Positions 177-63,851 of a stretch of DNA of 64,000 bases are shown here, piece after piece. The notes below the pieces were generated by a model. That model saw only the letters and a list, made by a program, of their open reading frames with translations. It did no database searches and was not told the DNA's origin. Source of the DNA: Glaucostegus cemiculus. Taxonomy: Eukaryota. The position numbers and the translations under genes were made by a program. The stretch lies in contig CDPCPM010000033.1 of the NCBI GenBank assembly GCA_976551045.1, positions 26,040,001-26,104,000 of the forward strand, read 5' to 3'. How positions within the stretch are numbered: position 1 is the stretch's first letter; each line of letters starts with the position of its first letter.

Positions 177-1465
177 CCATTGGCTAGTCGGATCACATGC
201 CTGGCTCATGTGTGGCTAAAACGATGCAGTAAAAGTTAGTGTTTTGTGTAAAGCTGCGGTCTACTGTACACGTATATCAGCAAATCTCGTAAAACCGACA
301 ATAAAATTCTAATACTACAAATCACTCGGCAAACTGAGGACTTCTAGGTTCCAATTTAGTCTTTTCCGCTTTGCAGGCTGGAGGCGAAAGCAGAATCTAC
401 AGTTGTTGAATCGCCTTCCATTTTGCCATTAAACTTTACATAACCAGCGATCAACACACATTTAAACTTTAACGGGATTCAGAGCGCAAGCCCCGTACAT
501 ATCCTTAGTACTGAAGTAGACGATTTTTAATGTCCACCTTTATGCACAAGTTAACAATGGCATGGTGAGGCTGAACAAAACAAAACAATAAGAGCAAACA
601 GGAAACGATTCTAAGGAGGGGGAGGAAAAACATACTGCTACAATGTTATACAAACAACTAAAACAGCGGTATAAAATTATTAGTAGCGGAGTTCAAAATC
701 TACGCTGATAACGCAATGATGTTAAGATAAATTCATAAACAGTTTTCAGATATATAATCGAGTTTACTTATATATTGCACAGTTAGGCGTTATACTCTTA
801 CAATGTCCTAATCTTGCCAGGTACAGTTGCCAACTTAAACGTCAATTAACCATTTTAAAATGAGAAGAGACATATTTGCAAACTCCGGTTTTGCTGTTAA
901 GGTTTATAGAATATATGTTCTATCATCCAATTTTTAAAAAACTGGCTTCATGCTTTATGTTAAAGCAAACGCATTTTATCGAATTCGTACTATGTCAGAA
1001 AGGTCCCAATTGACCAAGGAGATAAATGATTTCAGAAAATAAATCAATGATTTAAGAAGTAATATCAAGATTTCATTTTCATGATTGCCTTCTCCAGTTG
1101 GTGGAATATTCTTAGCACGATTTATTTCACCAGTTTTTCCAAACTTATTCTCACAATCTAATCAGATTTCCCCACAATCGTATGGACAATTGTGTTTTCC
1201 CAATAGCGTTCGTGATATGAATTTCCTTTCATAAAGAAAGCTTATCTTAAAAATGCACCATCTCTGTAATCAAATTCCAAACCAAATAATGACACAGAGA
1301 GTTATTTTGCCTTCGCTGCATTTTATATTTTGGTGGATCGATTATTTGTCTTCGTTGCATTATAAGCACCGACGGGTTGTACAATGGCACTAGATCTGGA
1401 TCTTAGCGGCGATCTTATTAGATGATGGAAATCTCACTGGAGGGTTTCAACGGAGGAATGAATGA
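177..1465 (+). pseudogene. Putative HoxD7 relic (promoter/leader, eroded exon 1, eroded homeobox)
   Basis: CCATTGG-N10-CACATG at 177-199. The leader at 246-338 (GTGTAAAGCTG...TATATCAGCAAATCTCGTAAAACCGACAATAAAA...CTACAAATCACTCGGCAAACTGAG) resembles the HoxB7/HoxA7 5'UTR as I recall it, with CTG (334) in place of ATG. KAEST at 387-401 resembles Hox7 NAEPT. 1387-1437 reads ALDLDLSGDLIR*WKSH (cf. TLELE....[10 protein letters not shown]...AH), then GGG TTT CAA CGG AGG A ATG at 1442-1460 (cf. WFQNRRM). Confidence 0.65.
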
Positions 1466-2819: not shown

Positions 2820-3030
2820 GGAAACATGGCGCTTGCGAGCTGTACTTGCGAAATCCGCAAGGAATTGCAGCGAATTCCTTTTTGTTTGAAGAAAATTTAC
2901 AACTTTGTAATGGACCTTTTACGAGGGACTCCGCGCTCCCATTGGCTAGTTTTGGTCATGTGAATCAAGTAACTGCGTTCATGGCCTTTTCATGATTTCC
3001 CTTGTGAATATTTCACTGCATTCCGCTGCT
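2820..3030 (+). promoter_or_regulatory. Conserved Hox7/8-6 intergenic element (H8/7-6 four-cluster-sequence-like), probable distal promoter
   Basis: YY1-type AACATGGCG (2823-2831), AAAATTTACAAC, TTTTACGA, CCATTGG-N11-CATGTG (2939-2962) and CATGATTTCCC. This resembles the block I recall between paralogue groups 7/8 and 6 in vertebrate clusters. Confidence 0.6.
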
Positions 3031-4035
3031 AACTCGTCTCAAACCGTCTTTTCTGTCAGTATCTCCCCTTGCCTGCTTTTGTCGTTGGTATTTGGCGCCA
3101 GCTGCTTGGGAAAAAAGGAAGACTTTCCGCTCTATTCGCGGTGTTCAATCCTTTTCTGTATAACTATGAGGAAGTCATTCGACTCATGCTGGGATTTAGC
3201 AATCTGATCTCTCTCACAGACCTCTGACGTCTGCTTACAGTCTTTCATTTACCCTTCAATACGCTTTACCTATTTTAAGTTATTTTGATAATCGAAACTG
3301 TACAAATGGAATACAAAATCCATCTGGTTCCTATTCGGGGGCAGCGCCATGAAACCGGTAAGTCTTTTTGCTCTTGCCTGCTCGGCTGTTGCAGATAGCA
3401 GTGTTGTAATGGGAGGCAGCGACGTTGTCTTCGCTGGTTGAGTTCTAGGCAGCTGTTTGGCAGGTCGAGGAATGCTCGACATAAATTAATAAACAGCAAG
3501 ACTGATTTTCAAATGGCGTATTCTAACCAGGTCCAGGTGGTCGATGGAGTACAAACAGTGGCTGTGAAGCAGATTAATTAGATATTTATTTTCCGCAATG
3601 AGACCGAGAGTTGCGATTCTTGCCTACCTTTGAGATGATAGCCTTACTATAAGACAACTGACATTTGTGGAGATTGGTCGGATTGCCTCGTTCAATAGAG
3701 ATTTTTTTTCTGAAAAGATATTTTTGTTACTTTTATTACTGATGGCTCTCTGGTTCTGGTTAATTTGCGGGAGGGTTGCCCGGTGAACTGCTTCAGTGAT
3801 TGGCGGCTTCAGTCTGTTTTTGCTGATCTGTGGTGTTCCATGCTATTTTCTATCTCGCAGCCTAGTGTAGGAAGGCTGGACTCTTTTGCTCTGTCAAATG
3901 AAAAGTTGGAGCAATGAGTGATGGATTTGTGTTAATGATCCTAATAAGTCTGTGCAGCGATCACTGGCTTTAGAAACATCGAGAGCTATGGGATTTTGGG
4001 GGAAATGCTTAGCTAACATTTTAATGATATTTTAC

Positions 4036-9457: not shown

Positions 9458-9700
<243 letters not shown>

Positions 9701-11176
9701 CTGGTTACACCTAACTGGCTATATTATTGTCCTTTACGTTGCAATGGGAAAGGTTGCTTGGCCACATAAAATACTATGTGAGATACATTGATATCGTGTG
9801 GGTTCACCGTCTTGTCATCAATACACTTTACCAGTTGTCATCAACAGATGTTAAAATCTTGTTAAAATATATATTTATAATATCTATGCCTAAATTTGGA
9901 TCAGAAGAGAGAACAATAAGGAGGTCAGCCGGCGTAATGCAGCCAAGCAAACCGTTTACCACCGAGAGCAGAATGAAGTTGTTCTCTGTCTCTGGTTGCT
10001 GAACAAACCAATCTTCTACCGGATGATAGCTTCATTAAAACTATAATTTGATCATGTTTTGAAAAGCTAGATACATATTGTTGTTTTCATCTTTTTTTAC
10101 ATCAACTGTGTTTTTTTTGTTTGATTAATGCTGGGAATCGTTGCTGTGATCCCAGGTATATCTTGTGATGTATATTCTGTACATATATAATGTTTAAACG
10201 TCTGACTTTGTGCTATATAAATGGAATGAGTGGTGTTTTTGTCTACAACATTGAAATAAACCCAGTTTTACCAAAAATATTTTCATCTGTTGTTTTTAGC
10301 TCCAATGCATGTACAGAAGTACTGGCAACTGGTCACTGGTGAAAGAACCAATGCGATTATTCGCACTTTGCTTCTATTCACTCGACTCATGACTTCTTCT
10401 AATTTCATAAAAGGTCCTGGAACTGAGCTCGCCTCAAATGTTTTCTGTCACATATTGTTCTGGGCCAGAATTCTTGGCGGAGTTGACACCTATTCGATAT
10501 TTTAGTTTTTTTTAAGGGAAACATGCCTTCGTTCAGAAACTTCATCATCTAGATTCCAGACATGTTCATTTACATAAGACAATTTGATAATCTGTTGTCT
10601 AGTGGTGGAGCAATACAAGTTGATTTTCTTTTAATTGATGGCTATTAACATTAAATATTTTGAAATGTATAAATACAATGGTGGGACTTAACTGGAAGAG
10701 CTTTGGGAACCATGGAGTTCTCTATTAGTTTCCACAGCACTGAATAAGCTAGCATGAGAAACTGCAATGGGGATTTAAACTCTGTATTTATCTCTAAAGC
10801 AGGATGAAAGAGTAGATACTGAAGCAATCGTAATCGGAAACAATGTCATAGGAAACTCTTAATGTCAAAAGGAATTCTTGTTGGCCTTCCTAATCGACTT
10901 AGTTGTATTTCACTGTAGCTCCCAAGCTATCGGTCACGGATACACACAGTGTATTTACACTTACCAAATCTAATAGATCTCCGTGGCTGCATAGGAAATG
11001 CCCAAATTGCGCCTTAAAATAAAGAAAACTTATTCTCCAAGGCACTCGTCCTCTGGGTACTCAGATATTTAGCTTTATATTACTGAGAGAACATTTCAAT
11101 GAACATGGCTGTCTTTAATGAATAAAAGTTTTAAAGTTTAAGGGTTATTTATATGGACGCCTCAGAACCAGGTCCT

Positions 11177-11290
11177 GACTGGTTGTACAGGGGCACGTGA
11201 CGCCATTAAACTTTGTTTTATGGTTAGGGGAGTTGACAAGCCAAAATATAATTCACATCATATATTAGGTTAAGAGCAGACAAGTGCAGA
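11177..11290 (+). promoter_or_regulatory. Conserved Hox5-4 intergenic promoter-like element
   Basis: GACTGG-N11-CACGTG followed by CATTAAACTTTGTTTTATGG and GGGAGTTGACAAG (Hox/Cdx and Meis-like sites). I recall this block as conserved downstream of Hox5 genes. Confidence 0.6.
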
Positions 11291-14200: not shown

Positions 14201-15058
14201 ACACTTAAGAGAAATGGTATCAGCATTCGTATAACAAAAAAACTGAGGATTTTACACGTCAAATTAGACAGATTCGACCCTCATATTTCAAAGGGACTAT
14301 ATAACATACAGGTGGATTAGAATTTGGTCCCCAAAAAACAATAATACAATATTCAAATTCTATCTTATATACTCCAGGGACAGTAAATGTTTCGCTTCAC
14401 CTTGGGTCCACTATTGCTCCCTCACTTAGATAATCATAATCTCTACCAGGATATCAAATCCAAATTTTACAGACGCTAACCTCTCTATACGCGATATTCG
14501 ACACAACCACTCTTCAAGTAACAGCATAGTTTTACCGCTAGATAAACGTTGAGCAACGACTCACTTTAAATAGGTCCAGATAATGTTTAACGGGGATTCG
14601 CAAAGCAATGGCCCAGCGCCATGGATCCATCGTTTCAGCACTAGTTTTACAATGTGAATCTTTAGGCGTTGATAAATAATGAAGGACAATTGGTGCTGAA
14701 AAGCAAAACAGTCTTGCTTATGCTGAACTGGCTTCTGCAAGAAAATGGCTTTCTGGGTCAGTAGAAAGGTGAACTTTTTAAAAATTCAATTTTGTTTTTA
14801 AAATCGGTGTACTTATACATAGGAAAGCTCTTAGCAGGCTGTTGACAATAATAGCTTTCATTGAACCACTGAATCTATGAATAAATATAGGGTTCACTTC
14901 CCAAACACTTACTTTGCATTGACATTCTCTAGGTCAAAATCTGCCTAGATCAAAAGTCGCAGCACTTGTGTGGGCAGTTAAAAAAAGAGGTGAATTTTAA
15001 TCGGGTTTGTTCATCAATAACTCTTTGGCATTGACCTGTCTGAACGAGTCGAGCAGTA

Positions 15059-15075
15059 AGGTGAAATGCAGGTCA
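15059..15075 (+). promoter_or_regulatory. HoxD4 5' DR5 RARE
   Basis: AGGTGA-aatgc-AGGTCA, the sequence I recall for the mammalian Hoxd4 upstream RARE, about 3.1 kb before the HoxD4 ATG. Confidence 0.88.
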
Positions 15076-16691
15076 CAGCGTCTAACAAATATTAAAATGT
15101 GCAGCACCAATCAGCTTCACAATGTGCGATAATTTGAACTATAAAGAGATTTGGCTTTCGAATTATCGGATGATGTAATGATATCTGGTATTTTCTGTGC
15201 AAAAAGGGTTTTAAAAGCTGAATTCACTGCTGGTGCTTTCGTTGGCGCCATTGGTTGTTGCAAACTGTTTAGCTCTTTTCTTTCCTCATCCACTGGGTAA
15301 ATGAAAAAAAAAATCACAGGTAAATAAGATCAGCGACGTGATGTTTTTTTAACAAAGGTAAAATAATTACAGTAACATATTAAACAAAAACTGGAGCATT
15401 TGTGAAGGAGTAGTTAGGCTGTTCTGCCATAGAGCATAGATAAACCGAAACCTTTGTTGTGGACAGAAAGAACGGAGGAATACACCAGTGAAGATACAGT
15501 TCACAGTCAGAAAGTTCAGCTTCAGTGCTACATTGTTATCCATACATCTCAGAGCATTTAAGTGCATTTTTGTACTGATGAAAGCACTTAGTCTTTTTCG
15601 TTAGCGTGGTTTTACAATTGTTCTCAGCCTGCCACTCGCGTGCCTAGCTTTTTAACCAGAAATGCGAGGACAGAATTACCGTCAGCTTAGCTGAGCAGTT
15701 GGTTCGAAAAGACTCACACACTTTGAAAAGGTCATGCGTTAGGCTGTAGCTAAAGTGAAAATAATAATGTAACTTTCCGATGTGTTTGCAAATGATTTCA
15801 GTCTGACCCCGTGCCCTTCAGCCTTTAACACGCAACGTGGTGGCACTACAGGCACAGTGGGGACAGCCAAGAAAGGAACCTGTAATGCACTAGAGTTTAG
15901 AAAACACCTTAGATATATTCGAACCAAATGGAATCTGATAAACTAGCAGATCAAATTCTATATTTTTCCCTGCATGCGGCCATCCAACTGGCTTGAGTTC
16001 TAGCCAGATTTTGAAGCATACTGTCGGCAGCATTTTTGATCCTGCTCCCTGGAAATGAGAGAGATTAAGAACAGAACAAACAAAATCCCCATTTTCCTGG
16101 GATGCTCTCATTTTGTGAAAGTGGCAATGAGTGGCAAACGCTTTGGAGTAAACCAATATTTGTGCTATCATGTTTAAGTTGTATTTGATTAGTTTTAGCG
16201 ATTGTTTAGACCGAGCTATATTTGTTATCAAATCCTGCGGTTTGTTAGTGGTGAGTTCAAATTATTAGCATCTGGAGCAATTATTGATTCACGCTGGGGC
16301 ACTTAGTTATGTGAGCTGGAGCGGATCGGTACAAACTGTTTCCTATAAAATCTTTGTGATATACGAAGGGTTCAGAAAACACAGCAACAAATAGTAACTT
16401 CTGCCTTGTAAACTGTATGCTAAAACTGGCTCTGCACGCTGATTCATGTTGCTGCCACTGCCGAACAATGCAAATATAAATGTTTGCTCACCCCTGTTAC
16501 CAAATTTAAGGGATCAGTTTGTAGTATTTTTCAATGGCTAAACAACTACGTGATTTAACAAGAGCTGCGCCTGATTTTAATTTCTTATTTATTAATATTA
16601 CACGTCATTAACTCCTTGGGGATCGCTTTCCACTGCAGTCTTTTAAACTATTTTATCATTGTGTAATTAGTCACCGAATTTGTTTGTAACC

Positions 16692-16774
16692 CGTCGTCTA
16701 TATATACCCTGTAGAACCGAATTTGTGTGATGTTTCGGTCACAGATTCGTTTCTAGGGGAGTATATGGTCGATG
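16692..16774 (+). ncRNA. mir-10b: mir-10b precursor hairpin
   Basis: Mature TACCCTGTAGAACCGAATTTGTG at 16705-16727 and star arm ACAGATTCGTTTCTAGGGGAGT at 16741-16762. Canonical position upstream of Hox4. Confidence 0.97.
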
Positions 16775-21747: not shown

Positions 21748-21764
21748 GGTTCACCAAGAGGACA
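21748..21764 (+). promoter_or_regulatory. HoxD4 3' neural-enhancer DR5 RARE
   Basis: GGTTCA-ccaag-AGGACA about 2.5 kb after the HoxD4 stop, matching the Hox4 3' RARE type. Further TGACCT half-sites at 21804 and 21819. Confidence 0.85.
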
Positions 21765-24700
21765 AATTTTCTATTCGATTAGCTGTATTTCAGCCTGGAG
21801 GACTGACCTCTAAACCCTTGACCTTTTGGACTCAATCCTACCCTTCGCCTTTTCTATGTGTTTTAACACAGACACTATCTAGTTAAAGCAAAGTGAAATA
21901 AGTTCTCACGTATGAACTATTCTAATTTCTGAAACTGGCGAATCGTCCATCCATTCAATGGAAATGCCGATTTTCGTACGATGCCCGGTGCCACCAAACT
22001 TCACTTTTCTTTGGTCTTCACACCTTGACAAAGCTGACATTTTAGCTTTTGATTTCACTTGATCTCTGAGGAGGATTGTAGAAGCAGATGATTCAATTGG
22101 CTTCAATATTCGCTTATTTCTAGACAGTGTGCTTGCACTTTTCCTTTGCTCCTTGAATAAAGCAAGAGTACAAAAACACACCCAAACATTTACCTCTGAT
22201 ACTTGCACCCAAGATCCGCACTACATTCTTTCTGTACAGACTGACAATAAAAAGTCACCCTGCCCTATTCATTCGCCTGCATAAAATACTCGAAATCGCG
22301 TTATAACATTTGCATCGAATAAAGGCTTGTCGATTCAGCATTCAATCTACTAATATTACCTAAAAACATAGCAGAAAAAGCACAAAATCGCAGAATGAAA
22401 TGAGAGTCATGCATTGGAAACAATTCTATTCTCAAGCACAGTTGTATCCATATAATGGATAAAAGTCCGTATAATTTCGTCATTATTCAATTTTTAATTA
22501 CAGAAGACACATTTTCGACACGAAGCGGACGCAGATCCTATTGTGTTGGTGTTTCGGTCTGTCCCATGTTAATGCTAATATATATCTCATAATCAACTAG
22601 CTGCAAAAGCCACCACTTCTCCCACCACCACCACCCCCTCCCTTCAAAATAAAAATTGCATCTTTCTCCATGAAAGTTGAATAGATCTAACCAGGTAACA
22701 TGACATTAAAATTATTTTCCTAAAGCAGTCTAATCACTAAAACTGAGATCCAATGTATGTGAACAACCAGAATGGGCAGTAATTAATCAACGGCATATGT
22801 TGTCTTTTCCTTGATACAATCTAAAATGTGTAAGTATATATGTTAAAAGAGGCTGTAAGCAGTATGTGCTTTCACTTTAGTGCAATAACTATCCCCTTGA
22901 AAAGTAGCTCACTTTTAACCGGAGTTAGCACCAAGGTCAATTGATAACGTCTCACCTTCATTTAAGTATGTAATTTATCAATATTTAACCTATCCAGCCA
23001 CATGTATTAGTGCAGGCACCGGCTACAATTTATAATTCAAATGATTTAAATTCAAGGCTTAATTATTTCAGCTTCTTTCACTATATCATTTGTCAGATAA
23101 ATACCGAGTACTCAAACATAAGACGTATAGAACATAAAAGTCAACAACATTATGATTTCTGAACTGTTATATCATTCAAAATTCATAACGTCAGATGTAA
23201 TATCAATCACAATCAATCATATAACATATTTATATCAATGACTGCACAGCACAACTCCCATAACCACATATTACCCTATATATAGGCGTGTATTGTTTGT
23301 ATGCATCTATATATTTTTCTGTTGAGGAAAATATTTTTGTATGCAGTCATACAAGCACACATGTATGCACATGTGAACATGTGTTGATATGTTCAGGCAT
23401 ACATGTGTATGTATGTAAGACTATATATATGTGGGTATGTGATAGTCTGTAGGTGTATTTAATGCATTCACTTGTATTTATATCTATGGGTATCAAATAA
23501 CTAAATACATGGATAAACTCTACCACCTTTGATTAGTTTATTTCCTCAAATATGAAAACATCTCAAAATGTAGTATAATTAGACAAATCTTAACAAGCCA
23601 AAACCAAATTGTTGTAAGTATACCGCCCGGTTGCTTCGATTCTAGCCTGGAACAAGAAACAGCTGAAAGGAAGGCAAAGAGTCAATACGACCATGCCATA
23701 GGCTGGTCATTCAAAGTGGGACAAAGCTGATGCAGCCCATCGCTTCTAAACAGCCATATTTGTTGGTCTTCCCCTTTAGAATGTTAAAATATATTTGCCA
23801 ACCTGATATTTCTCAAACGATAAAGACTTTTGCATTTTATGACTATGTCCAGGAGAGGTGGTAAGATTTTATGTATCCTTTTATATTTGATTCGGCCACG
23901 TGATTTACTAAATAATTAATGCAGTACGTCCCGAAAGAAACACGGCGTCGTCATTAATCGGCCAAGCAAAGGACTCTATCACACTTGAAAAGTGAACAGA
24001 TCCCAAGAATATTATATACAAATGGTCCGCTATCAGACTTTGCTGTTGTAGTTCGTTGCCAGAAACTGAAAAATGGAAGCTTGGTAGGTAAACAATTTTA
24101 GTTTTGTTTCTGGTAAGATAGCAAATGAATGTAACTGTCATATATATTTGATGAATAGCGCCCTTTGCTTCTTACTATGTGCTACCAGGCGACAGTCATA
24201 AGTTGCAGTAGGCTGATATACTGACCTTCTATTCGGATTAGCTTTAACATTTTGGAGCAACTATGATAAACTTCAGGTGCAAAAATTTGTATCTGCTGTA
24301 TCTTGGAGGTGGGAGGTAAACATTAGTAAGACTGCGGTGGGATTATTATTAAGGCGTAGTTTTGTGTCCTGAAATGGCGTAGATTTTACGGTTTAGTTGT
24401 GCTTTATTGCAAACAATGCCGGCTGTCATGGCATCTGCTGCCTATTTGTACACAGCGAAGTAGAGGCCTGAGCTTATATTGAATACCACGAGTCATATAT
24501 TTTGTGTTCTTTGAGACGTAATGGAAAGTCTGTAAATGAGATTCAGCGAGAACAATTGCAGGTACTTACGTCAACAGAAAATATATTCATGGGCATTTCG
24601 TGCCTTATATTTTAGTCGATGTGTTGCTTTAAAAGATGAAACAAATGTTTCCTTTGAACCTACGGATTTGTTTTTACAGTTAATTAGTATTTATTTCTTA

Positions 24701-29004: not shown

Positions 29005-31219
29005 AAAAAACTTTTGAGTCGAACATTTTTCATTGCTGCATGCCTCGAAGCTGCTGGTCTGCCATGTTAGTCAGCTAAATCCAATTACTGTGAGTAGCAT
29101 TTCATTTTGCTCGATGGGGCCACTCACTTATAACTTCACCTAAAATTTCAATAAACATCTCTACAGCTCTCGCCATGGTAACTATCAACATTTGCCTGAT
29201 AGTCTGGCTTTAAACTTTTCATCTCTGAATAAAGTCAAAACTTTTCAGGCCCCAGTACAGTAACTGCCTTGGACTTAGAGGTGCACTCGGCTGCAGTATG
29301 TTCTGGTGGGCTGTGAACGTAATTAGCACATAAATATTCTCGACTTTTTCCTTCCAGCCCAGTTTAGCAATTTAGTAAAGTGACGAAGAAAGTTTCCAAA
29401 ACTTTCCATGTACTTACTTTACTAATACTATTTACATGATTAGACTACAGATAAGGTTTTAGGGCCGCAGTATTAGAGCTCGATCGCACTCCTGCGAAAT
29501 TAATAAGCAAGATGATTAAAAACTTACCGTTCAGACCATGGCTGAGCACATTTATCAAAACCACCTGAAAGCAACCAACTGTTTAAAGTTTGTCCAGCTT
29601 ACTGGTTTCCTTGGAAAGTAGCGAGTTTACTCTGCAAATACTTACTTCCAGTGATTACAGAGAAATAAAAGCTTATAAATTGACGTATGGCCACGTGAAT
29701 ACATTACACACATTATGGTGGGAGGCATTGGATCCAGGACCTAATGCCTTGACGACTGTGATTTGGATCCTCTTCTAACTTCAAATTATATCGACACAAG
29801 TTGGTGAGGCTAGTTTGTAAGGTGCTGCGTCTTAGTGGGATTAAAGAGGGATAGAGAAACCATGGTGAAGTTGTGTGATGGGCTGTATTGTGAGGTAGTG
29901 GAGGCGCTTCCGTTGGTTGTTCATTAAGTGGTGAGTTATTGCTGTATAAGCCAAAGGTCATTTCAAAGGCTTATGACTCTTACATTTTGTCAGCTAATGA
30001 CTGGGATTTCTTTGTGCATTTGATCTGCCACAGTTGCTGTTTTTCTTAAGTGTATTTCTAAATTAAAGCATGCATTTTAACTCGGTATAATATTCAATGG
30101 TACAATTTCTGCACGACCAGCTTCGGTGTATGTTCTATCTGCCTCTTTCACGGGAATTTGGAATTTGGAGCCTACTTGGAGGCTCCAGGAGTGCTATCTT
30201 ATTGTATTTTAGTGACTTTTTGTATAACCAAGCTGTTTCTATTATTATGAATATGCCCAATCGATATAAAATAATACGTACGTGATGTTTGGTATCCCAA
30301 TGACAAAGCATAACCGCCTGTCAATATAATACATTATTCATGAGTTTTATATATGGCGCCAGGCTCTTTCTTGCAATCCTCCATATTTGTATTGTTTTGT
30401 GCGTTTATGTTAAAATGTTCGACAACACCGACAGATTTTCATTAAATACACATATCTAAACATCAACGGGAAAGTAAATAATTCTAGAAAGGAGGCATAT
30501 TGATATCGTCAGGTTGGAGTAGGTTTGAGGAAACTGAAAGACTACACGATACAATTTCAAGATTTTTATTCAATACATTGTTTAGGCCTGTCTTCTATGA
30601 AAAGATCTCCACAGATATACTTTTCTAGCAACGTGTATAAATCCACCCTTAAGGAACACTTCTGATTCTCTAATTGCGAGTTTGGATATAAAATCCTCGA
30701 TGCTATTAATAGATTTATTATTCGACAATAACAATTTGAATTAAGAAAACCGCTTGACTTAAATGTTTGGTTATTTTATTCAAATTCTCCTGAAGCTTTA
30801 TTTGTCAAATAATTCCCAAAATATTCACATTCTAATCTTTACCATTATTAAACCTACTTAACCCGTTCTTTCACTTTTTAAAAAATTCACTGACAACATG
30901 ACTCCCAGTCATTAATCACACAACATTGCATTCAGTAAGACTTTGTTTCTCATTTTCGAAGGAAGAAAATAATGCTTAGTTTATTTCTGCTTTCGTTTAA
31001 AAAATAATCAAATGCGATAGTTATTGTGTTAAAAGCCTACAAGGAAGCATGATTTTAAGACTCCTTAATACAAACAATAAAACATTTCTTATTAAAAAAT
31101 GAATCTTCGCCGACTGTTGCTAGTTGTTTTCGGACCCGGGAAGGTGGCCTGAAATATATGTGATATACAAAAATATCATCAATGCTTGAAAAAAAAACTG
31201 TAATTACATTTTCTTTCAG

Positions 31220-31299: not shown

Positions 31300-33670
31300 G
31301 TGAGTTGTTTGATTTTTGGCTTCTTTTTGCTTTTAACCGAATTCGGTGCTCCTTTGGATTCTGTGTGTAATTGAGATTTGCCAGTGGAGAATTAGTTTGT
31401 AATTTTATGTCATGGCCATGAGAAAACATACAGAATAAATGAAACACGTTGTTTGAAGAGGCAGGGACGCGATCTTTGGATTCTATATGTATGGCTCTTC
31501 TCGAGTTATCTGTCATGAATCTGTTTCTACTTTGTGCTGGAACCATAACTTCCGTAAATTGATCGGTAATTCTAATAGCTAGGGTTGCATCTGTTAATAT
31601 TTTTAAAATGTAGATCAAATAGGCCTTCACTATAGCTAATAGAATTGAAAATGAGATGAAGTGAACATTTGCTTAAGCTCACCACTTTACTGCTATTCTT
31701 CATGCACAGAGTGAGAAATGTATGTAGTCGGTCTTTAAATCTAGGCCTGTTTCGTTAAGCCTGAATTATTTATCTAGAAGAAAGATTTATGAAGTCTTGG
31801 AAAGTGATTCGTTCGAACTGTATTGTTGCCTCCCTCCCGTTACTTTTACTCCTGTCCTGGTTACGTTGTTGCTTAATCTTTCTCATTGCATACAAAATTG
31901 CAGATTCGTTTTCATCAAATTTCTTTCTTTTACATCTTACATCAGTCTTAGTTAAGGGATCGACACATTTGCTTTATACCAAAATGCACAGTTTATAATT
32001 TAATTAAATTACACGGTAGACTCATAAACCCAGCACATATTGTAATTTGGATATAAGGGCCACATAATTCATGCAGTCTTGGCTGTCCACAGTAAACTCG
32101 AATAAAGTAAACTTCCTAAAAATAAGTTGAAAAGTGAATCAGGATGCATGTTTCTTTTATGTAATCTCTCTAGCAGCCTGGATTGCTGAACCAGGGTCCT
32201 GCAAAGAGTACCGAAATAATTCCATTCTAAATCCAAGTCTTTAAACATCTACGGAGCAGGAACCAGCCGCAGATTTGGAGGAGATTGCATGATTCAATTT
32301 GAAATATGGGCAGATGTGCCGAGCCAGCCGAATTCCTTGTCAGAAATGATCCGCAAAGTATAAACAAAATCAATATAGTTAGATTCCAAAAATAATTCTC
32401 TTCTCGCGAGCAATGGCTGGGGGCAATAACTGTTTTCGTAGGGATTTTAACAAAACATATCACATGATTAAACAAGTGAAAGATAACATGTAGCATGTTA
32501 TGTTTAAAACCACTAAGCAGATTATATTACACTGAATACGCCCGCCAGTCGCTGAGTATAACAGAATAAAAACATACGTTTTCAGTTCCCCAACCCTTTG
32601 TTTTCTGACTTCATACCTGAAATCAAATATTTGATTTCAAATTTGGCTCCCAGCTTGCATTTATCAAAGACAATTTTCAAATCCTCCAGCTCGAGCCATG
32701 CGATTCAGCTACATGTGAAAAGTTTGTCAGCTAAAACGTATTTAAAATTCCTGGACTACTTTCAATGCCTTATATAAAATCCTGCAAGAGCTAGCGAAAC
32801 GCCTCGAAACTTGCGGAGTATGGACATTCTTTTTCTGGCCTTTCCTCCTACGCTCTAGCTATTTTACACTTCTGAAGATAGCAGCTCTTTGGAAAGTGTT
32901 TTTTTCCCCATTCTGTAGTGAAGCGTTTACGACTATGGCACAAGCAGCCATAAATTTTGCGTAGCACATAATGACAGGTGCATTGATATGCACTGCCAGA
33001 ATTCTGGCTTCTTAGTAACATTAAATTGCCCAACCTTAGGAGATAGCTTTTAAATTCTTAGGCTAGTCGGCTACTCTATTAATATGTGACTGAAAGTTAA
33101 AATAAAACGGAAGTAGTTATTTGCTTGGTGTTTGTATGATATAACTGCTGTTCAGACGCCCAGCCTTATACAAATGAAACAGTACAAGGAAGATTAAATA
33201 GTTGGCCAAAACACAGGGAATATAGATAGGTAAAATATAACAATTGGTGTGATTTTGATGTTTCCTTGCGTATAGAGCGATGTCACAGAAGTTTAACTTG
33301 TGTTACACCGCCCTCCACATGGGACTTCAAATATTCGACAACGGGAAATGGAAATTTAGCTCATTGTCCTCCATCGGTTTATGGAACAGCACCGTTCCCC
33401 CCTTCGGGCTTCTAGTTTTCATCATCTCTGAACTTACATTTTACAGTTATGCTAACAAAAGACATCCAATAATTTGCTGCTTTATTTTTCGGACACGCGT
33501 TCCCCGATTGTAGATCATGTATCTGGGAACGCACCGAAAAAAGTGATGGTCCATACCAAGGTGTTACTTATCAAACCCCTGTATTAGGTGATGCACCCTC
33601 GCATTTAGAAAACATGTAAGGTAAGAAAGATCTGAAAGATGAACGCAGAAACAGTTGACCATTGTCCAAG

Positions 33671-33714
33671 TGATTTATGGCCCATGGCTGCGATTTAGGT
33701 TCAAGCAGAGTTCA
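33671..33714 (+). promoter_or_regulatory. Pbx/Hox site plus HoxD3-upstream DR5 RARE
   Basis: TGATTTATGG at 33671-33680 and GGTTCA-agcag-AGTTCA at 33698-33714, about 2.6 kb before the HoxD3 ATG. Confidence 0.85.
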
Positions 33715-36261
33715 CAAGCAGTTGGTGTTTCTGAGCCAGATTTGCAGCTTCACCACAGTCTTTTCACATTACCTTAATATTAATGTTAGTTTTGATTTTC
33801 CAAAGATAACACTTTCAAATGCACTACAAACGAGGACGCTGGTTGTGGTGGCGAAGGTTCAGACCCCATGGCAGTAAATAATACTGGGTTACTTTCTTAT
33901 CTCTCACACATAATGCTGATTAGATGGAGAGACGGGGTGGGGCAAATAGAAATGTAATTAGATTTCAGATAAAAAGTCAAGCAAAGGGCAGAAAGCTAAT
34001 GCCAAATTTATTAAGCTAAAATGGCGAGCATGGACATGACGGGAAAGCTGGGGAGCAGAATACAATAAAAATATATCGAAATGCCTCGAAACAAGTAATG
34101 TAAGCACGAAAGGAAAATAAAACGTTGAATTACTTCTTTGAAAAGAACAGCAGAGATGTGCACGTGTGCCTAGCTGCAACTCTGGAGGCCGCAGATCATA
34201 AACCTCATATTTCATGTAATGTCAGGTCTTGTATGGCTGAAGGCTTTTTTTTCCAAATGAATAGAAAATCTATTTGTGACGTGATATAGTAGCCAGATAA
34301 GTCATACGTCCAATACTTGTGACGGTTTATACAACAATGTTTTATTTAAATGGTTTTATAGACTAAGTATTATATTTAAAACTTAAATCCACGTCAATCA
34401 TCTTCGTGTTATGTTTCAAGTGTATGTATTTCACTGCGATTTGTTTTATTGTGGTTTTGGCCATTTAATTCTAATCGCAGCAATAACCTTCCAGTTTAAT
34501 ACATAATTTACGGCAATCTAAAGGGGAACAAGGCACTTGCTTCAATCAAAAGGGCCTAATTTTATTGCTGACCACAACAGCCAACCCCCAACCCTCCACC
34601 ACCACCTCCCCCCCCCCCCACGCCCCCCACGCCCCACACCGCCCAGTTCATGCAGACTTCGGCCTTTTGGGAGGTTTCCTTACCACGTCAGGTTAATTCT
34701 GCTTAAAAAGGCTTTTGCCAAGAATTTGCGAGAAATTAAATGTAATTAGCTTGCTAATGCCTTTGCAAATAACTAAAGAACGTTTGTCTGATTGGCACTA
34801 GGGTGCAAAAGGTGCATATATAAATACATATTTAAAGTCGATATTATAAATTGTGATATCTCAGTTTGCTTATATGTGATACAGCTTATTTAGCCAGTTT
34901 TTGCTCCAGTTTCAGAAGTCTAATTTTCTTAGTCTGAATTCGGTTCCAATATCATAAAACGTCTGTTGACTGAAAAGTTGATGGTTAGTTAATGCTGAAA
35001 AAAACATTCATTCGCGTTTTATGTTTCAGTTTAGCTGGCTTTTGTGTTTGATTATCATAAGTATATTGAAATAGGTTTATCCAGTAATATGTTATTTTGT
35101 AGACAACGGCAAAACTTAAAGATGCTGTAACAGCAGAGTGCAAATGCGAAATGCTGACTGAGTTATTTCTCTGTTTTAATTAGAACAAAGAGTTTGAATA
35201 GATGCTAGTTATACGTTAACTACAGTGCCTATCCCCTGTCATAAAGTAAAACGTGCAACAGAAAGAAACATTCGCTTAAAACAAACCTCCCTTACGTTGA
35301 AGAAAAAGAAGCCAACAATGGTGAAGGTACACTTCGCTGGTTTTTCAGGTTTTGGAACTGGTCCGATCCATCATGTCCTGTGTAACAGCGTCCACAGAAT
35401 AAAACGGTCTGTACCCACAGCAAATGCTGCAGGCAAATAAGTCGCCTGTGACTGTGGTTTTTTCACTCTTTTTAAGAGGGGCCTTTTTGTTTCTCACCAT
35501 TATAAAAATGGCCTCAATCAGTGAAGTCAACTGGAATAGCACTGTGTGTCCCACCGAAATCCACTTACATCAAGCATGACAGCGACATATCTAGCGTTCT
35601 GTAATTTCCATTAACTTTAAGATTATGGATAACGTTTGTTTTTTTTTGTTTCTACATTATGTGATATATTTCAGATGGCACAGCTCATCACTTTTCTTAA
35701 CATTCCTTTATATTATAATTTGGTAAATGAATGAAAATAGAGGCGTTATAAACGGATAGTCTGTCTGTAGTGGATCTTAGTAAGTGGATAATGCAGTGTA
35801 CATTCAAACAATAATAATAAATTGCCAAAGAAGTGGAATGCAATTGCAATCGTTCATACATCATTTGAACTATGAGCATTTTATACAGTTTTTGCAAATT
35901 ATCACTAAGAGCTGAGTATACAAACTGAAGCTAATTGCTTGCAACTCAGGAAAGCACCAACTCTTAAATCTATTAGAAAATTATAAGACTCTCCCTGAAA
36001 TTGTCACATAATGTATTTTACATTTCACCAACTTATTAATTGTCTCATAAAATAATAAATCTCAAACTTGTAGGAGAAGAAATGACCAAATCTGCTAATG
36101 GCAGGGTTGTGAAATGTTATTCATGGGATTTTTTCTTTTGTTTTATAGGCTGAATTCATTACATTCCTAATGTTTCACTCTTATTGTGTTTTGTTTCATA
36201 ATCTCCAGGAGCTCTGCATTCTGACGATTGTTGTAAACGTGCTGTGTGATCAAAGGTGTCA

Positions 36262-43449: not shown

Positions 43450-46400
43450 TTCGAATTCCAGCTTATGCATACACACTCTGCTGAGATACTTTAATAAGTG
43501 TTATTTCCAGTAACTACGAACTAAAAGTCGTGCCATTTATTACAAGCCTCTTAGTTCAACACATAATCAACTACGGACTTTCAGCTCAAACCTGCATTAT
43601 ACCATAAATGAAAAAAAATGAGTTCAGAACAAATTTAATGAAGTGCAAGAAATAAAATTATTTTCAATATTTTATTTTGAATATAAATATTTCAAATATT
43701 GCAGATTTTCCAAAACTAATTACATGTTCTTAAATAACAAATTATATATTGCTTTGTGTAAAAAAAGTATCAACATAAAAATATGCAAGCAAAAATAAAG
43801 TATTGCATTTAAAAATGTCTATTCTGACACTACTGATCACTTTCAGCCCAGTAGATGATCTGCGTCAGTCCAAAATCCAAATCAGCGGTATTCCTGGAAA
43901 ATAACAAGAAAAAATATTCAACAGCTAGTAAACCACAATAATAATAATTGTATTCTGGCTCAAACAAACTTCACTGCTTATGTTAAAAATACTGTTGCTT
44001 ATAACAGAACAATTGGTTGCGATAGAAAAAAGGCATTAATTATAAATTGTGGATCTATTTTTCCCTTACTAACCTTACCGTAGTGTTTAAAAAATCTGGT
44101 TTTAGGAATAACTACAGGATTGATTTTTTTCAAGCTGCATTATGAATCTTTATTCATAATTAAACATCAAGGCTACTTCTGACGTTTAATGTCCAAAACA
44201 GCTGGAAAGGTCCTGATCATCCGCACCATACAATTTATAATTATCAGGATAATCTGTTATTACAGTGTGGTTCGTAAAGAAAACTCTTAGCAATCCCAAG
44301 CGAACGATAAGCAAGGAAAGGCGCCATTTTGTTAGACTAACAAAATTTAGCAGCTGAATAGTCAAATACGTGGGTACTTATTTAGAAGAGATGGCAGAAA
44401 AAAAGCTCCATAAATAATTGAATTTCCAGAGTCCAAGTGGGTTATCTCTGAAGAAATGCATAACTTTTGGAAATATAAACAAGACATGAATAAATTTCTA
44501 ACGCTGAATGAGTTAGAAAACAAAAAATATATTTCAAGCAGTCATCATTTCTTTATGTTCCATAATTTTGGCTTGATTAGCACATTACAAGGTTTGTGTA
44601 CATTTCCAAATGCCGTGCATTTCTTCGTCGAAAAAAATGAATGGTAAAGTTCCAACTATAACAAGCTAAAACATTTCTCTGTAATAAGTGACTGTTGATA
44701 AGATCGGCCCTGCAGAGCAATTGCCAAAACCTTGTTCTAAAAATTCTGGATTTCGCAAAACTATTTCCCCAAGCCACTTATCAATTGAATTCACGACTTC
44801 ATGAAATTTATTGCGCATGCTATTGGCTGAAAATTGTGTAGAAAGGAATAAAATGCATCACAGTCTCAGCCAGAAGTTCACGAGTTATTTCGAAGATGCA
44901 AAACATTTTCCTGTTTCTGAAGGTGAACACGTGCTTTATAAAACGTTTACCTTACGCGACCAGCAGACAAAGAATAACACTCTACTTAGAAAATAATGCA
45001 GTTTTTAAATCCTTAACACGCCCACACACATTTTTGTTGGTAACCAATGCTGACTGTGCCAGTATTGCGCTTTGAAACACCCACAATGCACATTTGTAAT
45101 GCCCAATAAATATTTATTTTTCAAAAATCTTTTTATGTCTTTTTTACTAGAGGAAACGCCGTTCTGTGAACAGTCCAGTCATAGGTGTCTGGTTTTTTTT
45201 AAATCACGCAGCATCATGCTTTTCGTTGCTTAAACGCTTGAGGAATGGTCAGTATGTCGTTCCACATTGCAGGATCAAATGTCACTATATTAAAGTAGCA
45301 TTTTTTTATTTTAAATTTGTTATTTACGTGAAGGCCAAAATTCTACCTTAATTATTGCTTATTTGGTACCGTTATAAACAATAAATTCAAAATAAATTAT
45401 TAATCCTCTGCAAATAATCTCTTATTTCACTTTTGAATATTATCTCAAAAATAGTAAAACTTTTCAGTATACTTAATTGTAATGTGTTTTTCCATCTGCA
45501 TTAAATGCTGATGAAATTAGCAATAAACTCACTTAATTTTTTCTCCAACTCAAAATGTTGTGCTTTCCTTCCACTACAGTAAGGTCATCCTGTCCAGCTC
45601 ATTTACAGTAACAAGTGACTCTTTAACCCGGCATATGTTATGAAGATTTTACTACTTTAGTTAGTAGAAAACAATAAATGTTACCCAAATGTATTAAACT
45701 CCCACTCCGAATAAAAGGCGTGAGTTCATTGTTTACTGTTCTTGGTAATAAACAGCAGCTCTCCAGGAACCCTTGAGCAAATGGTCATGTGACAGCTAAA
45801 TCAGTCATCATATTTCATGTTTATATTGACAACTAGCTGGTATATTTACAACCACTATTTCCGTTTATTTTACAAACGTGAAGGCTGTAAAAGCGCAATT
45901 GTAAATGAAAAGGAAGGCTAATTTTGGAATTTGAAACAACATACTAGCAAATAAGGAGTTCTGTTGAAAGACTTGCACCTAACTCTGGATGCATGGCTGT
46001 CAGTGGGGCATTGTTAAGAGTTCATCAATCATGAAATCTGCACTTTTCCCTCGACAGCAGTTCCTCCTACTTTAAAGCAAGCCAAGGCCAGCTGGGATCC
46101 CTCCAGCAACCGCTGCCAAAGCGGACAAATGCGAAAACGAATAACACACCAGTCTAATCACACCACAGACGAAACCTTCTGTACGGCCAGCCTTCGACAA
46201 ATCTGGATCCCTCGTTACTGCTCGTTAAAGAGGGTAAAACGTTTCAAGGACATCAAAAATTCTGGCATGGTTGTGAAAGCTATGTGTGCTTAAATTATTT
46301 TCATGTATGACTGCTTTTGTGGTATTGGGTCATTTGCATTAACCTTTTAAAAAGTGGCACTAATAGATGTAGGTTCAAGGAATCCCTAAAGTATAAGACA

Positions 46401-59675: not shown

Positions 59676-60720
59676 TTACAGAGAATTGTTACAACACAGA
59701 AGGCGGCCGTTCAACACCGCCTCTCCAAGAGAACAACGTTCTAGTCCCCCCGGCCTCCTTCTCCGTACACTTACAAACCTTCCTCCACCATATTCCCTCT
59801 CGAAGGCCAAAATGGAAACATACCAGATCTGCAGGCAGTGTATTCCTGATTCCAACCCCGTGCTGCGCAATAAAATTTCCTCATATCATTTTCAATTATA
59901 TTCTCCTTTAGTTCGTGTTTATTTTCGCTAGACCTCGATCCCTCCGCCAACGGGAAAAAAAAACCTCCCAATATTCACTCTGTCCTGACCCTTCATCATT
60001 CTTTATACTTCCATCAAATCTCCCCACAGTCATCTATTCTGAAGGAAATTGCCCCGGCCTGGCCAAACTATCCTTGCGTCTGTACTCCTTCATTCCGAGG
60101 ATCATTCTTAAATCTTTTCTGGACCCTTTCTAAACCTTTACGTGCCTCCATCAACGAAGTGACCGGAATTGGACACAAAAGTCCAGCTGAGGGCGGACCA
60201 AGTGTTTATAAAGATCAGCAGAACTTCTCTTACATTTATCCTTTACGCCTGTATTGGTAAAGCTCAGTATTGTATAATCTTATCAACCACTTCTTCACTC
60301 CGTCCTGTCATTTTCAATGATTTGTGCTTTCATACTCTCAGATCCCTCGACTCATGCACTCCCTTTGGAACAATACCCTTCATTTCATATTGTCTCTCCT
60401 CATCCGTCGTCGTCTCACATTAAACTTCATTTGCCAGGCTTCTGCCCATTCTACCGGCCGATTTAAACCGTGATGCAGCTTACCACTATCCTCTTCACAG
60501 TTTAAACACTGCAAATTTAGAACTTATGGTTTACACCCCCAAGTCAAGGTCATTAATATAGATTAAAATAATCAATGGCTTCATTACTGATCCCTGGGGA
60601 ATGTCACTATTCATCCTCCCCGAGTCCGAGAAACAACCATTCACCGTGACCCGCTGTTGTCTGCTACTTAGCCAACTTTGTACCCTTGCTATCAATATTC
60701 CATTTTTGCATGCGTTTCAA
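59676..60720 (-). mobile_element. Degraded CR1-type LINE (RT region to 3' end)
   Basis: ACTGATCCCTGGGGAATGTCACT reads SDIPQGSV on the minus strand (RT PQGS motif). A CR1-like tail lies near 59680. Many stops. Confidence 0.7.
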
Positions 60721-60767
60721 CATTGCTGCTTCTGGCACTTCACCAAAACAAAAGCCTCTGGAAATAA

Positions 60768-60860
60768 TGGGAGCGCTTTCTTCCCTGAGGTAGCAGGGTA
60801 AGGGTTCAAGCCTCACTGCAGGATCAGCACAAAAGGCAGGTTGCAGTACTGAGGGGGTGA
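60768..60860 (+). mobile_element. tRNA-derived SINE head (Deu-SINE/SacSINE1-like)
   Basis: GGGTTCAAGCCTCACT B-box, then AGCACAAAA...TGCAGTACTGAGGG. Confidence 0.5.
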
Positions 60861-61646
60861 AGGATTATTCGCGATGCATTCGTTTGAATTCACCAGTTAA
60901 GTATTGAGGACGTACGGTGCACACAAGAAGTCCAATACAGAAATACTTCTGTCTTCCCAGGTACATTCAACATAACTTTTGACACAATTTAGGCGCACTC
61001 TCCTAATTCTCAACCGTCAAGCATCAGAATTAAAACATGTATTTCAGAGAAAAGCACAAAAAGTTGGACTGTTGTTTATGGAAGCTGACAGTAAACATAT
61101 TCACTATTGATGTTCCTCACATCACAACTATACATCATTATGTTGTAGAAAGTCCGTGAAAGACTTTCCAGAAATGCACATTAACAGTTCTTTTTCAACA
61201 TTCTATATTAGATTGAACACTGAAATAATTATGAAATATATGTAAATGGTTATATTAATTTGTAATTACTAATTCAAGTTGGCGACTTATTATGTAAAAA
61301 TGCCTTTCCAGAGCACTTTTCGTGTCATTCATCCTGAATAGAGCAGGTTTGATGGACCGCAACATCTTTTCTCATCTACTTGCGATGGAAACTAGTCCCT
61401 AAAGAATTTTTTTCCATTCATTTGCTCGGCTCCCTTTCCTTTGAATTGCAGAGTGTGACAGGCGAAGTTCGGTAATCGGACCTCCTCCTCGCAATTACTT
61501 TTGCGGCAGCTCTAGCATTTGCCATCGGCGTGTGCAATAATTAACATGTCGGCCCCGTTAACTGCTCATTCATAAGAAAGTCAGGTCAGTTTGCAGGTGT
61601 GCAGAATCCAACTTTAAACCTCTCAAGTCGAATCAAGGTCGCAATA

Positions 61647-61945
61647 GTCAGAGGCTTTACCCCAAGGTGGAAATGCCAGATACTAGATGGCATAGATTTA
61701 AGATGGGGGGGGGGGGTTGTTTAAAGGAGATGTGCGTGGCAAGTTTTTTTTTACATAGAGAGTGGCAGGTGCTTGGAACGTGCTGCCAGTGGAGGTGGTG
61801 GAAGCAGATACCATAGCAACATTTGAGAGGCATTTAGAAAGGCACATGAACAGGCTGGGGATGGAGGGGCGAGGACCATGTGCAGACAGATGGGATTAGT
61901 TTAAATTGACATTATGGTTGGCACTGACATCGTGGGCTGAAGGGC
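61647..61945 (+). mobile_element. CR1 LINE 3' fragment
   Basis: TR-x-H-RFK and FKGDVRGKFF-type ORF2 C-terminus, with tail GTGGGCTGAAGGGC. Confidence 0.8.
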
Positions 61946-62477
61946 TTACTTGGAGTATTGTGTTCAGTTCTGGTTGCCTCATTATAAAAAGGATGTGGAA
62001 GCTTTAGAAAGGGTGCAGAGGAAATTTACCAGGATGTTACCTGGATTGGAGAGCATGTCTTATGAGGATAGGCAGAATGAGCTAGGGCTTTCCTCTCTGG
62101 AGGATGAGAGGTGACTTGATAGACAAGATGATAAGAGGCATAGATTGAGTGGACAGTCAGAGATTTTTTCCCAGGGCGACAATGGCTAACACAAGGAGAC
62201 ATAATTTTATGGTGATCGGAAGATGGCATAAGGGAGATGTCAAGGGTAAGTTTTCTACACAGAGGGTGGTGGGTGCAGGGAATGGACTGCTGGCAGAGGT
62301 TGTGGGGGCAGATACATTAGGGACATTTAAGAGACTCTTAGATAGACACATGAATGATAGAAAAATAGGGGGCTATGTGGGAGGGAAGGGTTAGATAGAT
62401 CTTAGAGCAGGATGAAACATCAGTACAACATTGTGGGTCGAAGGGCCTGTACTGCGCTGTACTGTTCTATGTTCTAT
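61946..62477 (+). mobile_element. Second CR1 LINE 3' fragment
   Basis: LEYCVQFWLPHYKKDVEALERVQRKFTRMLPGLE and ADTLGTFKRLLDRHM, ending in a GTTCTATGTTCTAT tail. Confidence 0.9.
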
Positions 62478-62699
62478 TTTTAGCAGTATTTTTAATAAAT
62501 TCAGCTGGTCTTGCTTTTTCTCCAGCAGTGGATATAATATAATTTGAATTTGTGTATGCAGAGAAGTTAGAAATAGTGAAATCCACTGCAGTATTTGAGT
62601 ATGTCCCAGCATATCCTTCACACCGCCATTACAATCAAGCCAAGGGATCAACCCTGGTTCAAAGTACAGAAGGGCATGTCAGAAGCAGCAACAAGCATA

Positions 62700-63018
62700 C
62701 CTAATGAGTTGCCAACCTACTGAAGTGGCAACACAAGATGATGTGTACTAAACAAATAAAAACAACATGCAAAGCCACCCTGCAATGAACTGATCTAATT
62801 AAAGCTCAACAGCCCTGCCACACCTAATTATGAATGGCAATGGATAATTGGACTGCCTACTTGGAGAGAAGGTTCTGTGAAGGTCACAATCATCAAAGAC
62901 AAGACTGAAGAATTTGCAGCCATGTTCAACCAGAAGTGCTGAGTCGATGTTCCACCTTAGCTTCCTCCTGAGATTCCCAGTATCACATAAATCAGTCTGC
63001 AGAGAATTGACTTCAAGA
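62700..63018 (+). mobile_element. Old LINE ORF2 fragment (5' part, interrupted)
   Basis: KDKTEEFAAMFNQKC*VD motif typical of the pre-RT region of CR1-clade ORF2. Confidence 0.55.
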
Positions 63019-63851
63019 AATGGTATTGGTTTATTATTGTCAATTGTGCTGAGGTACAGTGAAAAGCTTGTCTTACAAACTGATCATACAGGTCAATTCA
63101 TTACACAGTGCAGTTACATTGAGTTAGTACAGAGTGCATTGATGTGGTACAGGTAAAAACAATAACAGTACAGAGTAAAGTGTCACAGCTACAGAGAAAG
63201 TGCAGAGCATTAAGGTGCAAGATCACAACAAGGTAGATTGTGAGGTCATAGACTATTTCATTGTTTAAGGGAACCGTTCAATAGTCTTATCACAGTGGGG
63301 TAGAAACTGTCCTTAAGTCTGTTGGTATGTGCCTTCAGGCACCTGTATCTTTACCCAATGGAAGGGAAGAGAGAATGTCCCGGGTGGGTGGGGTCTTTGA
63401 TTATGCTGGCTGCTACACCAAGACAATGAGAGGTAAAGATAGAGCCCAAGGAGGGGAGGCCAGTGCCCATGATGCACTGGGCTGTGTCCACAACTCTCTG
63501 CAGCTTCTTGAGGTCCTGGGCAGAGCAGTTGCCATACCAAGCCGTGATACATCCAGATAGGATGCTTTCTATGGTGCATCGATAAAAGTTAGTGAGAGTC
63601 AAAGGGGACAAACCAAATTTCTTTAGCCTTCTGAGGAAGTGGAGGCACTGGTGAGCTTTCTTGGCCATGGCATCTACAAGATTTGACCAGGACAGGCTGT
63701 TGGTGATGTTCGCACCCAGGAACTTGAAGTTCTCAACCCTCTCGACCTCAGCACCATTGATGTAGACAGGTGCATGTACACCACCCCCTTTCCTGAAGTC
63801 AATAACCAGTTCTTTTGTTTTATTGACATTGAGGGAAACGTTGTTGACATG
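63019..63851 (-). mobile_element. 5'-truncated Rex1/Babar-clade LINE
   Basis: NNVSLNVNKTKELVIDFRK...FKFLG...FYRCTIESILSGCITAWYGNC, with 3' tail GACAATAATAAACCAATACCA on the minus strand. Confidence 0.88.

Follow-up and report, generated by a model that had tools for sequence, protein, structure and literature searches.

Paralogous conserved non-coding elements of vertebrate Hox clusters, reportedly the subject of a 2010 study by Matsunami, have been kept at matching places of the clusters since the early genome duplications (PMC3595034), and a HOTAIR/HOXD element belongs among them (PMC7139118). A second class comprises remnants of lost Hox genes at collinear places, described for HoxA14 and HoxB14 of the elephant shark, HoxD12 of a caecilian, HoxA7 of the bichir, and the zebrafish hoxDb cluster, which is down to miR-10d (PMC3707753, PMC4470032, PMC1845163). 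We have analyzed 64,000 nucleotides of DNA from Glaucostegus cemiculus (assembly GCA_976551045.1, contig CDPCPM010000033.1, positions 26,040,001 to 26,104,000; hereafter the window) and describe an element at positions 176-344 that almost certainly represents the promoter with the 5′ leader of HoxD7, a gene since lost, the third duplicate beside HoxA7 and HoxB7 and not a later copy of either. It sits with both described classes, and differs from both in that it served a protein-coding gene, now lost, as promoter and leader. Like the paralogous elements it has been kept at a matching place, but its partners serve protein-coding genes as promoter and leader, and this copy has outlived its own gene. 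Like the remnants it is a trace of a lost Hox gene; those are, as far as is known, recognized by coding sequence or a microRNA, whereas here promoter and leader are all that is left.

The assignment to HoxD7 is made because the likeness is specific to HoxA7 and HoxB7, the place is collinear, and the likeness ends at the old start codon. A sequence-only reading of this DNA had proposed that it is the front end of a lost HoxD7 and that it would align with Hox7 leaders, and both proposals hold up. Against the HoxA7 gene of the same genome, blastn gives 66% identity over 176 columns (E 7.6e-13), and positions 242-344 align with HoxB7 at 69% over 104 columns (E 1.1e-7). Identity from end to end is 110/173 (64%) for the relic and A7, 101/162 (62%) for the relic and B7, and 118/168 (70%) for A7 and B7; at the 47 sites where A7 and B7 differ, the relic agrees with A7 at 21 and with B7 at 15. 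Since it is farther from A7 and B7 than they are from each other, and lies at the collinear position, we regard it as a third duplicate. Local scores against upstream DNA were 98 for A7 and 78 for B7, and 200 shuffles of each peaked at 38 and 35.

An equally good match to unrelated Hox promoters, on which the proposal could have foundered, did not appear. The panel compared comprised 29 regions, namely the 300 bases upstream of 26 Hox start codons (without A1-3, A11, A13, B1-3, B10, B13 and D14) and three copies of an element lying near 2.9 kb in the window; only A7 (z 19.9) and B7 (z 17.0) exceeded all 200 shuffles, and the runner-up reached z 3.2. When the whole D cluster was compared by blastn with 140 kb of HoxA and 150 kb of HoxB, the only partners of the relic were A7 and B7. 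The 15-base core, CTCGTAAAACCGACA, occurs three times in the 2.85-Gb genome, in the relic and in the A7 and B7 leaders, and a reversed control pattern occurs seven times; the relic itself is single-copy. A pattern scan of metagenomes gave 0 matches. A metagenome scan with HoxD8 exon 1 returned three weak loci, reaching E 1e-8 at best and matching part of the exon at 37-55% identity, which were not taken for vertebrate Hox DNA.

The relic begins about 1.0 kb past the HoxD8 stop codon and 8.4 kb ahead of the HoxD5 start, on the same strand as HoxD8, and is followed by the 2.9-kb conserved element, which also follows A7 and B7. A group-7 remnant would be expected to combine specific likeness, a location past group 8 and ahead of groups 6/5 on the collinear strand, and divergence as old as the cluster duplications, and all of these are found here. 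Its parts are as follows.

176-344, + strand: whole relic, consisting of a proximal promoter of Hox7 type, the 5′ leader and 8 bases from the start of the former coding sequence (blastn to own HoxA7 and HoxB7)
179-183, − strand: CCAAT box (ATTGG on the + strand), predicted NF-Y site, invariant in D, A7 and B7
194-199, + strand: E-box 1 (CACATG), predicted USF site, 10 bases past the CCAAT box (count of ATTGG-N10-E-box)
207-212, + strand: E-box 2 (CATGTG here, CACGTG in A7 and B7), 7 bases past E-box 1, with the same spacing in the three-way alignment
239-256, + strand: conserved block at the likely transcription start region, with GTGTAAA invariant in D, A7 and B7
273-300, + strand: leader core, TATATCA plus the 15-base word CTCGTAAAACCGACA (genome count of the 15-mer)
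300-305, + strand: AATAAA, new in HoxD and absent from A7 and B7, a possible poly(A) signal or second Hox/Cdx site (alignment, hexamer scan)
317-325, + strand: ACAAATCAC block ahead of the start codon, invariant in D, A7 and B7
337-339, + strand: dead start codon, reading AGG in place of the ATG of A7 and B7 (ungapped end of the alignment)

Thus the relic shares with the A7 and B7 promoters and leaders a CCAAT box, two E-boxes, their spacing and the leader blocks, at 62-64% identity end to end, and differs in having no start codon, coding exon or homeobox, in E-boxes that are both non-palindromic, and in the new AATAAA. The motifs named by the sequence-only reading all lie where it placed them: CCATTGG at 177-183, a 10-base spacer and CACATG at 194-199, then GTGTAAAGCTG at 246-256, TATATCAG at 273-280, CTCGTAAAACCGACA at 286-300 and CTACAAATCAC at 315-325. 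The second E-box, CATGTG at 207-212, had been overlooked. Spacing of the CCAAT box and both E-boxes is intact relative to A7 and B7, the own HoxA7 and HoxB7 leaders carry identical words in identical order, and about two indels separate the relic from A7 in order and spacing. Within CTCGTAAAACCGACA lies what we take to be a posterior-Hox/Cdx-type motif. Absence of an ATG, also claimed earlier, is borne out by AGG at the homologous place; a gapped alignment puts CTG (334-336) there instead. The frames that begin with the ATGs at 197, 208 and 224 run for just 11, 3 and 2 codons, and among the ATGs listed in 170-900 none opens a frame of more than 25 codons.

Beyond the leader nothing of the gene could be detected. 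Past position 344, 8 bases into the old coding sequence, no significant likeness was found in any of eight anchored tests (p 0.37-0.88), and a faint protein likeness directly after the dead start is not significant (p 0.17, 0.35); nor is an upstream extension to position 90 (p 0.55, 0.13). Searches for Hox7 or Hox6 exons, introns, flanks and 3′ traces were negative in 18/18 DNA tests (z < 3), and the best tblastn hit had E 0.014 on the wrong strand. As no exon is left, the relic lacks the recognizable broken exon or homeobox of a classical Hox pseudogene. The next shared landmark is 2.5 kb away in D as against 4.1 kb in A and B, leaving 1.6 kb missing, and for this reason part of the HoxD7 gene was probably deleted. 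Hence the earlier claim that promoter and leader are far better kept than the coding sequence agrees with the lack of any coding trace, with the qualification that deletion, as opposed to slow decay, may explain part of the difference. We know of no living copy of HoxD7, which to our knowledge is missing from all jawed vertebrates. The horn shark gene inventory, in the part cited, is likewise without it (PMC3509897).

Among eight lost-gene slots (D7, D6, A8, A12, A14, B11, B12 and C7), only D7 holds a leader relic (z 16-18), the others scoring at most 1.5. This test has good power at the D6 and B11 slots and fair power at A8; its power is poor at C7, and at groups 12 and 14 it is either poor or unknown. 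No coding relics of D6, D7, A8, A12, A14, B11 or B12 were found in the stretches searched, and no Hox7 leader in the HoxC8-C6 interval, a weak negative given that the contig there is rich in repeats and is missing the 2.9-kb element as well. As decay yardsticks, HoxA14 and HoxB14 pseudogenes were sought by genome search and not found, and none for HoxA14 appeared in the 36 kb upstream of HoxA13 (G000 C62:4548001-4584000). In contrast, recognizable HoxA14 and HoxB14 pseudogenes are retained in the elephant shark (PMC3707753).

Long blocks identical in A and B provide a measure of preservation. In D, 59/74 (80%) is retained in the relic, compared with 92/113 (81%) in the intact D5 promoter, 85/93 in D4, 79/101 in the 2.9-kb element, 47/69 in D2 and 22/38 in D9; the relic is no more decayed than the D5 promoter, a working neighbor. 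Within it, long shared blocks are better kept than short ones (68/87 vs 18/31, p 0.04). Fourfold-degenerate sites are near saturation (118/363 for D-A, 89/239 for D-B, 132/319 for A-B), corresponding to 1.7, 1.4 and 1.1 substitutions per site, of which about 1.0 falls, by arithmetic, to the D branch. Because HoxD7 is not known from any jawed vertebrate, the greater part of this branch should be younger than the loss, and approximate dates would put roughly 0.6-0.8 substitutions per site since then. Simulated neutral decay at 0.6 or more substitutions per site reached the observed likeness in at most 10/400 runs (0-10/400 at 0.6), and decay at 0.5 in 3-88/400, although the starting sequences were generous and so favored the neutral case, and the binomial for 86/115 kept gives p 0.0002 at 0.6. 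The 15-base core and the CCAAT/E-box unit jointly survived in 0/400 runs under all 18 settings, the core having been picked after the fact. The likeness between duplicated clusters thus stands above the neutral level, as in paralogous conserved non-coding elements. Block retention, fourfold-site saturation and the uniqueness of the relic among lost-gene slots lead us to consider it likely, as judged within one genome, that the relic has remained under selection since the gene was lost. The earlier suggestion that it is still selected is therefore supported by within-genome yardsticks and stops short of proof.

If the relic is selected, a role as promoter is somewhat favored over one as an enhancer or at the RNA level, because the upstream NF-Y/USF module and the downstream leader blocks still form a single sense-strand unit whose order and spacing are preserved. 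That it still acts as a promoter, predicted to be bound by NF-Y/USF and to start a non-coding sense transcript, is the reading we favor, at about even odds. NF-Y and USF would keep the site open and start RNA near 240-280, as estimated from usual distances between CCAAT boxes and transcription starts. The transcript would have no reading frame, and might splice from a donor-like site at 564/565 or run on toward D5-D3 in the manner of long shared Hox transcripts. It could help to maintain open chromatin and transcription in this portion of the cluster, or could serve the genes downstream and mir-10; the resemblance of the core word to what we presume is a posterior-Hox/Cdx site would link this activity to trunk identity. 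The CCAAT box and E-box stand 10 bases apart, as in NF-Y/USF-type Hox promoters; NF-YA and USF2 bind the HOXB7 and HOXB4 promoters in human cells, with the 10-base spacing at HOXB4 (PMC5223348). Mammalian Hox clusters commonly produce polycistronic as well as non-coding transcripts, and shared upstream promoters serve HOXC6-5-4 and HOXD4-3 with mir-10b (PMC1831499). The likely working mode of the relic is similar: its first exon, without coding potential, would lead into the genes downstream or into a non-coding RNA. The same mode may be compared with the long non-coding RNAs that, as reported by Hezroni in 2017, descend from lost genes. In contrast, the shared promoters are not traced to a lost Hox gene in the part of that paper drawn on (PMC1831499), and the relic is known from its sequence alone.

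It is also possible, though unlikely, that an element of the same origin and under selection is now enhancer-like or insulating, with NF-Y, USF and Hox/Cdx proteins tuning HoxD8, or the 2.9-kb element and D5/D4, without a stable transcript. The same preservation data speak for this; the best-kept block is a word that we take to be of Hox/Cdx type, a second having been gained right behind it in HoxD, and paralogous Hox elements are known as enhancers (PMC7139118). An enhancer would not, however, need the whole order and spacing from promoter to start codon, kept with about two indels relative to A7. In addition, ATTGG-N10-E-box occurs ten times in 314 kb of Hox clusters, and all nine other matches lie directly upstream of intact genes of groups 2, 4, 7 and 9, so that elsewhere in these clusters this arrangement marks Hox promoters only.

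A passive fossil, with its coding part deleted or decayed and its promoter fading slowly in a slow-evolving genome, we consider unlikely, and a little more so than an enhancer. The missing 1.6 kb and the sharp end of likeness at 344 suit it, as do the elephant shark HoxA14 and B14 pseudogenes, still recognizable (PMC3707753), and a broken Hox2 exon piece surviving at 70% elsewhere in the window. It has to contend with a D branch on which synonymous sites have taken about 1.0 substitutions each, decay no greater than at an intact promoter, the outlasting of short blocks by long ones, and the survival of none of seven other lost-gene leaders. Several points nevertheless weigh against a selected, working promoter, the first of them also in favor of the fossil. 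When decay is simulated at 0.4 substitutions per site, the overall score is recovered, with the observed likeness reached in 126-319/400 runs; if 0.4 or fewer have accrued since the loss, overall likeness fits neutral decay (P 0.3-1.0), with a binomial p of 0.11 at 0.4. The date of the loss derives from gene inventories and a rough clock. Because the core was chosen post hoc, its simulated survival of 0-4% overstates the case, and some of the negative slots are low-powered, live A13/D13 leaders themselves scoring just 42. CpG density in the relic (0.87) is not raised over its flanks (0.66-0.97), the CpG-type E-boxes of B7 are CACATG and CATGTG here, possibly through decay, an AATAAA lies within the leader, and a special RNA fold of the leader is absent (z 0.38).

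It is improbable that the relic forms the distal part of an extended 3′ untranslated region of HoxD8, in which the AATAAA at 300-305 would be the poly(A) signal or the leader word would act at the RNA level. It does lie 1.2 kb downstream of the D8 stop on the same strand, and the D-specific AATAAA is followed by U-rich DNA; but seven poly(A)-type hexamers intervene between that stop and the relic, the kept CCAAT/E-box spacing is left unexplained, and there is no fold. A structured RNA or translation element was rejected on the fold score and on an Rfam scan of the window, which returned mir-10 only and no match in the leader. A later copy of an A7 or B7 promoter inserted in HoxD, an assembly error or a chance likeness of general Hox promoter motifs, for which the recurrence of CCAAT-N10-E-box in groups 2, 4, 7 and 9 might speak, is highly improbable and already largely refuted by distances to A7 and B7 that are about equal and exceed the A7-B7 distance, by exact collinearity, by z of at most 3.2 at other Hox promoters, and by the single genomic copy.

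The window carries Hox5, 4, 3, 2 and 1 genes on the + strand and is the HoxD cluster from D5 to D1; D8 to D14 and Evx2 lie upstream on the same contig. The horn shark HoxD gene order is the same (PMC3509897), which marks the genome as that of a cartilaginous fish. One further feature was annotated:

16698-16769, + strand: mir-10 precursor (Rfam RF00104)

HoxA of this genome lies on contig C62 and HoxB on C197, and HoxC genes lie on small repeat-rich contigs. HoxC-like genes of groups 6, 8 and 9 are on C993 and group 10 on C1164, with more posterior homeoboxes on C1164 and C1228, all in long, repeat-rich DNA; an earlier report, as cited, described loss of HoxC in sharks and rays (PMC3707753). 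Interspersed repeats occur 3′ of HoxD1 (59958-63430) and in the HoxA and HoxB flanks. Just upstream of the window, the HoxD8 3′ region (L002, about 9537-9558) contains a target site complementary at 21/23 columns to loci in HoxA and HoxB; we take the site to be one for miR-196 and the loci to be mir-196.

In comparisons of the D8-D5 interval with the other clusters by blastn, three non-coding matches were found: 176-344, 2822-3039 and the D5 promoter. The element at 2822-3039 (+ strand) is common to the A7-A6 and B7-B6 intervals (E 1e-20 and 1e-22) and contains a CCAAT box, an E-box-like word and a TTTTACGAG word, with a strong splice donor at 3357/3358 downstream. By analogy with HOXC6-5-4, presumably driven by a shared upstream promoter of long transcripts, it is likely to be such a promoter. 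The same 12 bases surround the CCAAT box in the relic (177-188) and in this element (2939-2950); an 11-base word of that region occurs at just these two places in 314 kb, and the A and B partners differ there, which may reflect either an ancient exchange between the two places or independent evolution toward a strong NF-Y site. Further non-coding elements common to HoxA, and most also to HoxB, lie at 11174-11272, 15046-15111 (which we take to be a retinoic-acid response element by its look), 21748-21831, 23897-24025, 29663-29993, 32912-32992 and 33663-33719.

Between HoxD2 and HoxD1 lies the broken piece of a Hox2 exon 1 (45996-46137, + strand), with frame breaks and no homeobox trace nearby. 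It matches HoxA2 at 71% over 135 bases (E 2.4e-16), HoxB2 at 70% over 144 and HoxD2 at 70% over 106, and retains TTCATCAATCA, a PBX-HOX-type word on the minus strand, which we take to be the core of the Hoxa2 exon-1 hindbrain enhancer. This piece may be a second, coding-derived relic retained as an enhancer.

We found no description of the HoxD7 relic in an open-literature search, and mentions of 'HoxD7' there include none concerning a remnant, judging from the listing and the opening of the abstracts. Hox non-coding RNAs, HOXD-AS2 among them, are described without this element in the sections cited (PMC8293171, PMC8330917). Since horn shark HoxD14-D5 was sequenced long ago (PMC1845163), earlier Hox footprint tables may already hold this DNA as an unnamed footprint, without the present reading.

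Because no living copy of the gene is known to us, the relic is a direct sequence trace of HoxD7, and it shows that a promoter can outlast its own gene in a Hox cluster. This bears on the old question of what keeps Hox clusters compact and in order once genes have been lost, and on the origins of conserved non-coding elements and Hox non-coding RNAs. We tentatively raise, as possible rather than probable, a scenario in which HoxD7 disappeared around the time when living jawed vertebrates arose, or earlier, and its promoter, selected for more than 400 million years, still fires a non-coding or long shared transcript that aids the switch-on of anterior HoxD genes. If that is true, bony vertebrates may carry a worn, unrecognized version behind HOXD8, and control points would persist in Hox clusters after the loss of the genes they belonged to.
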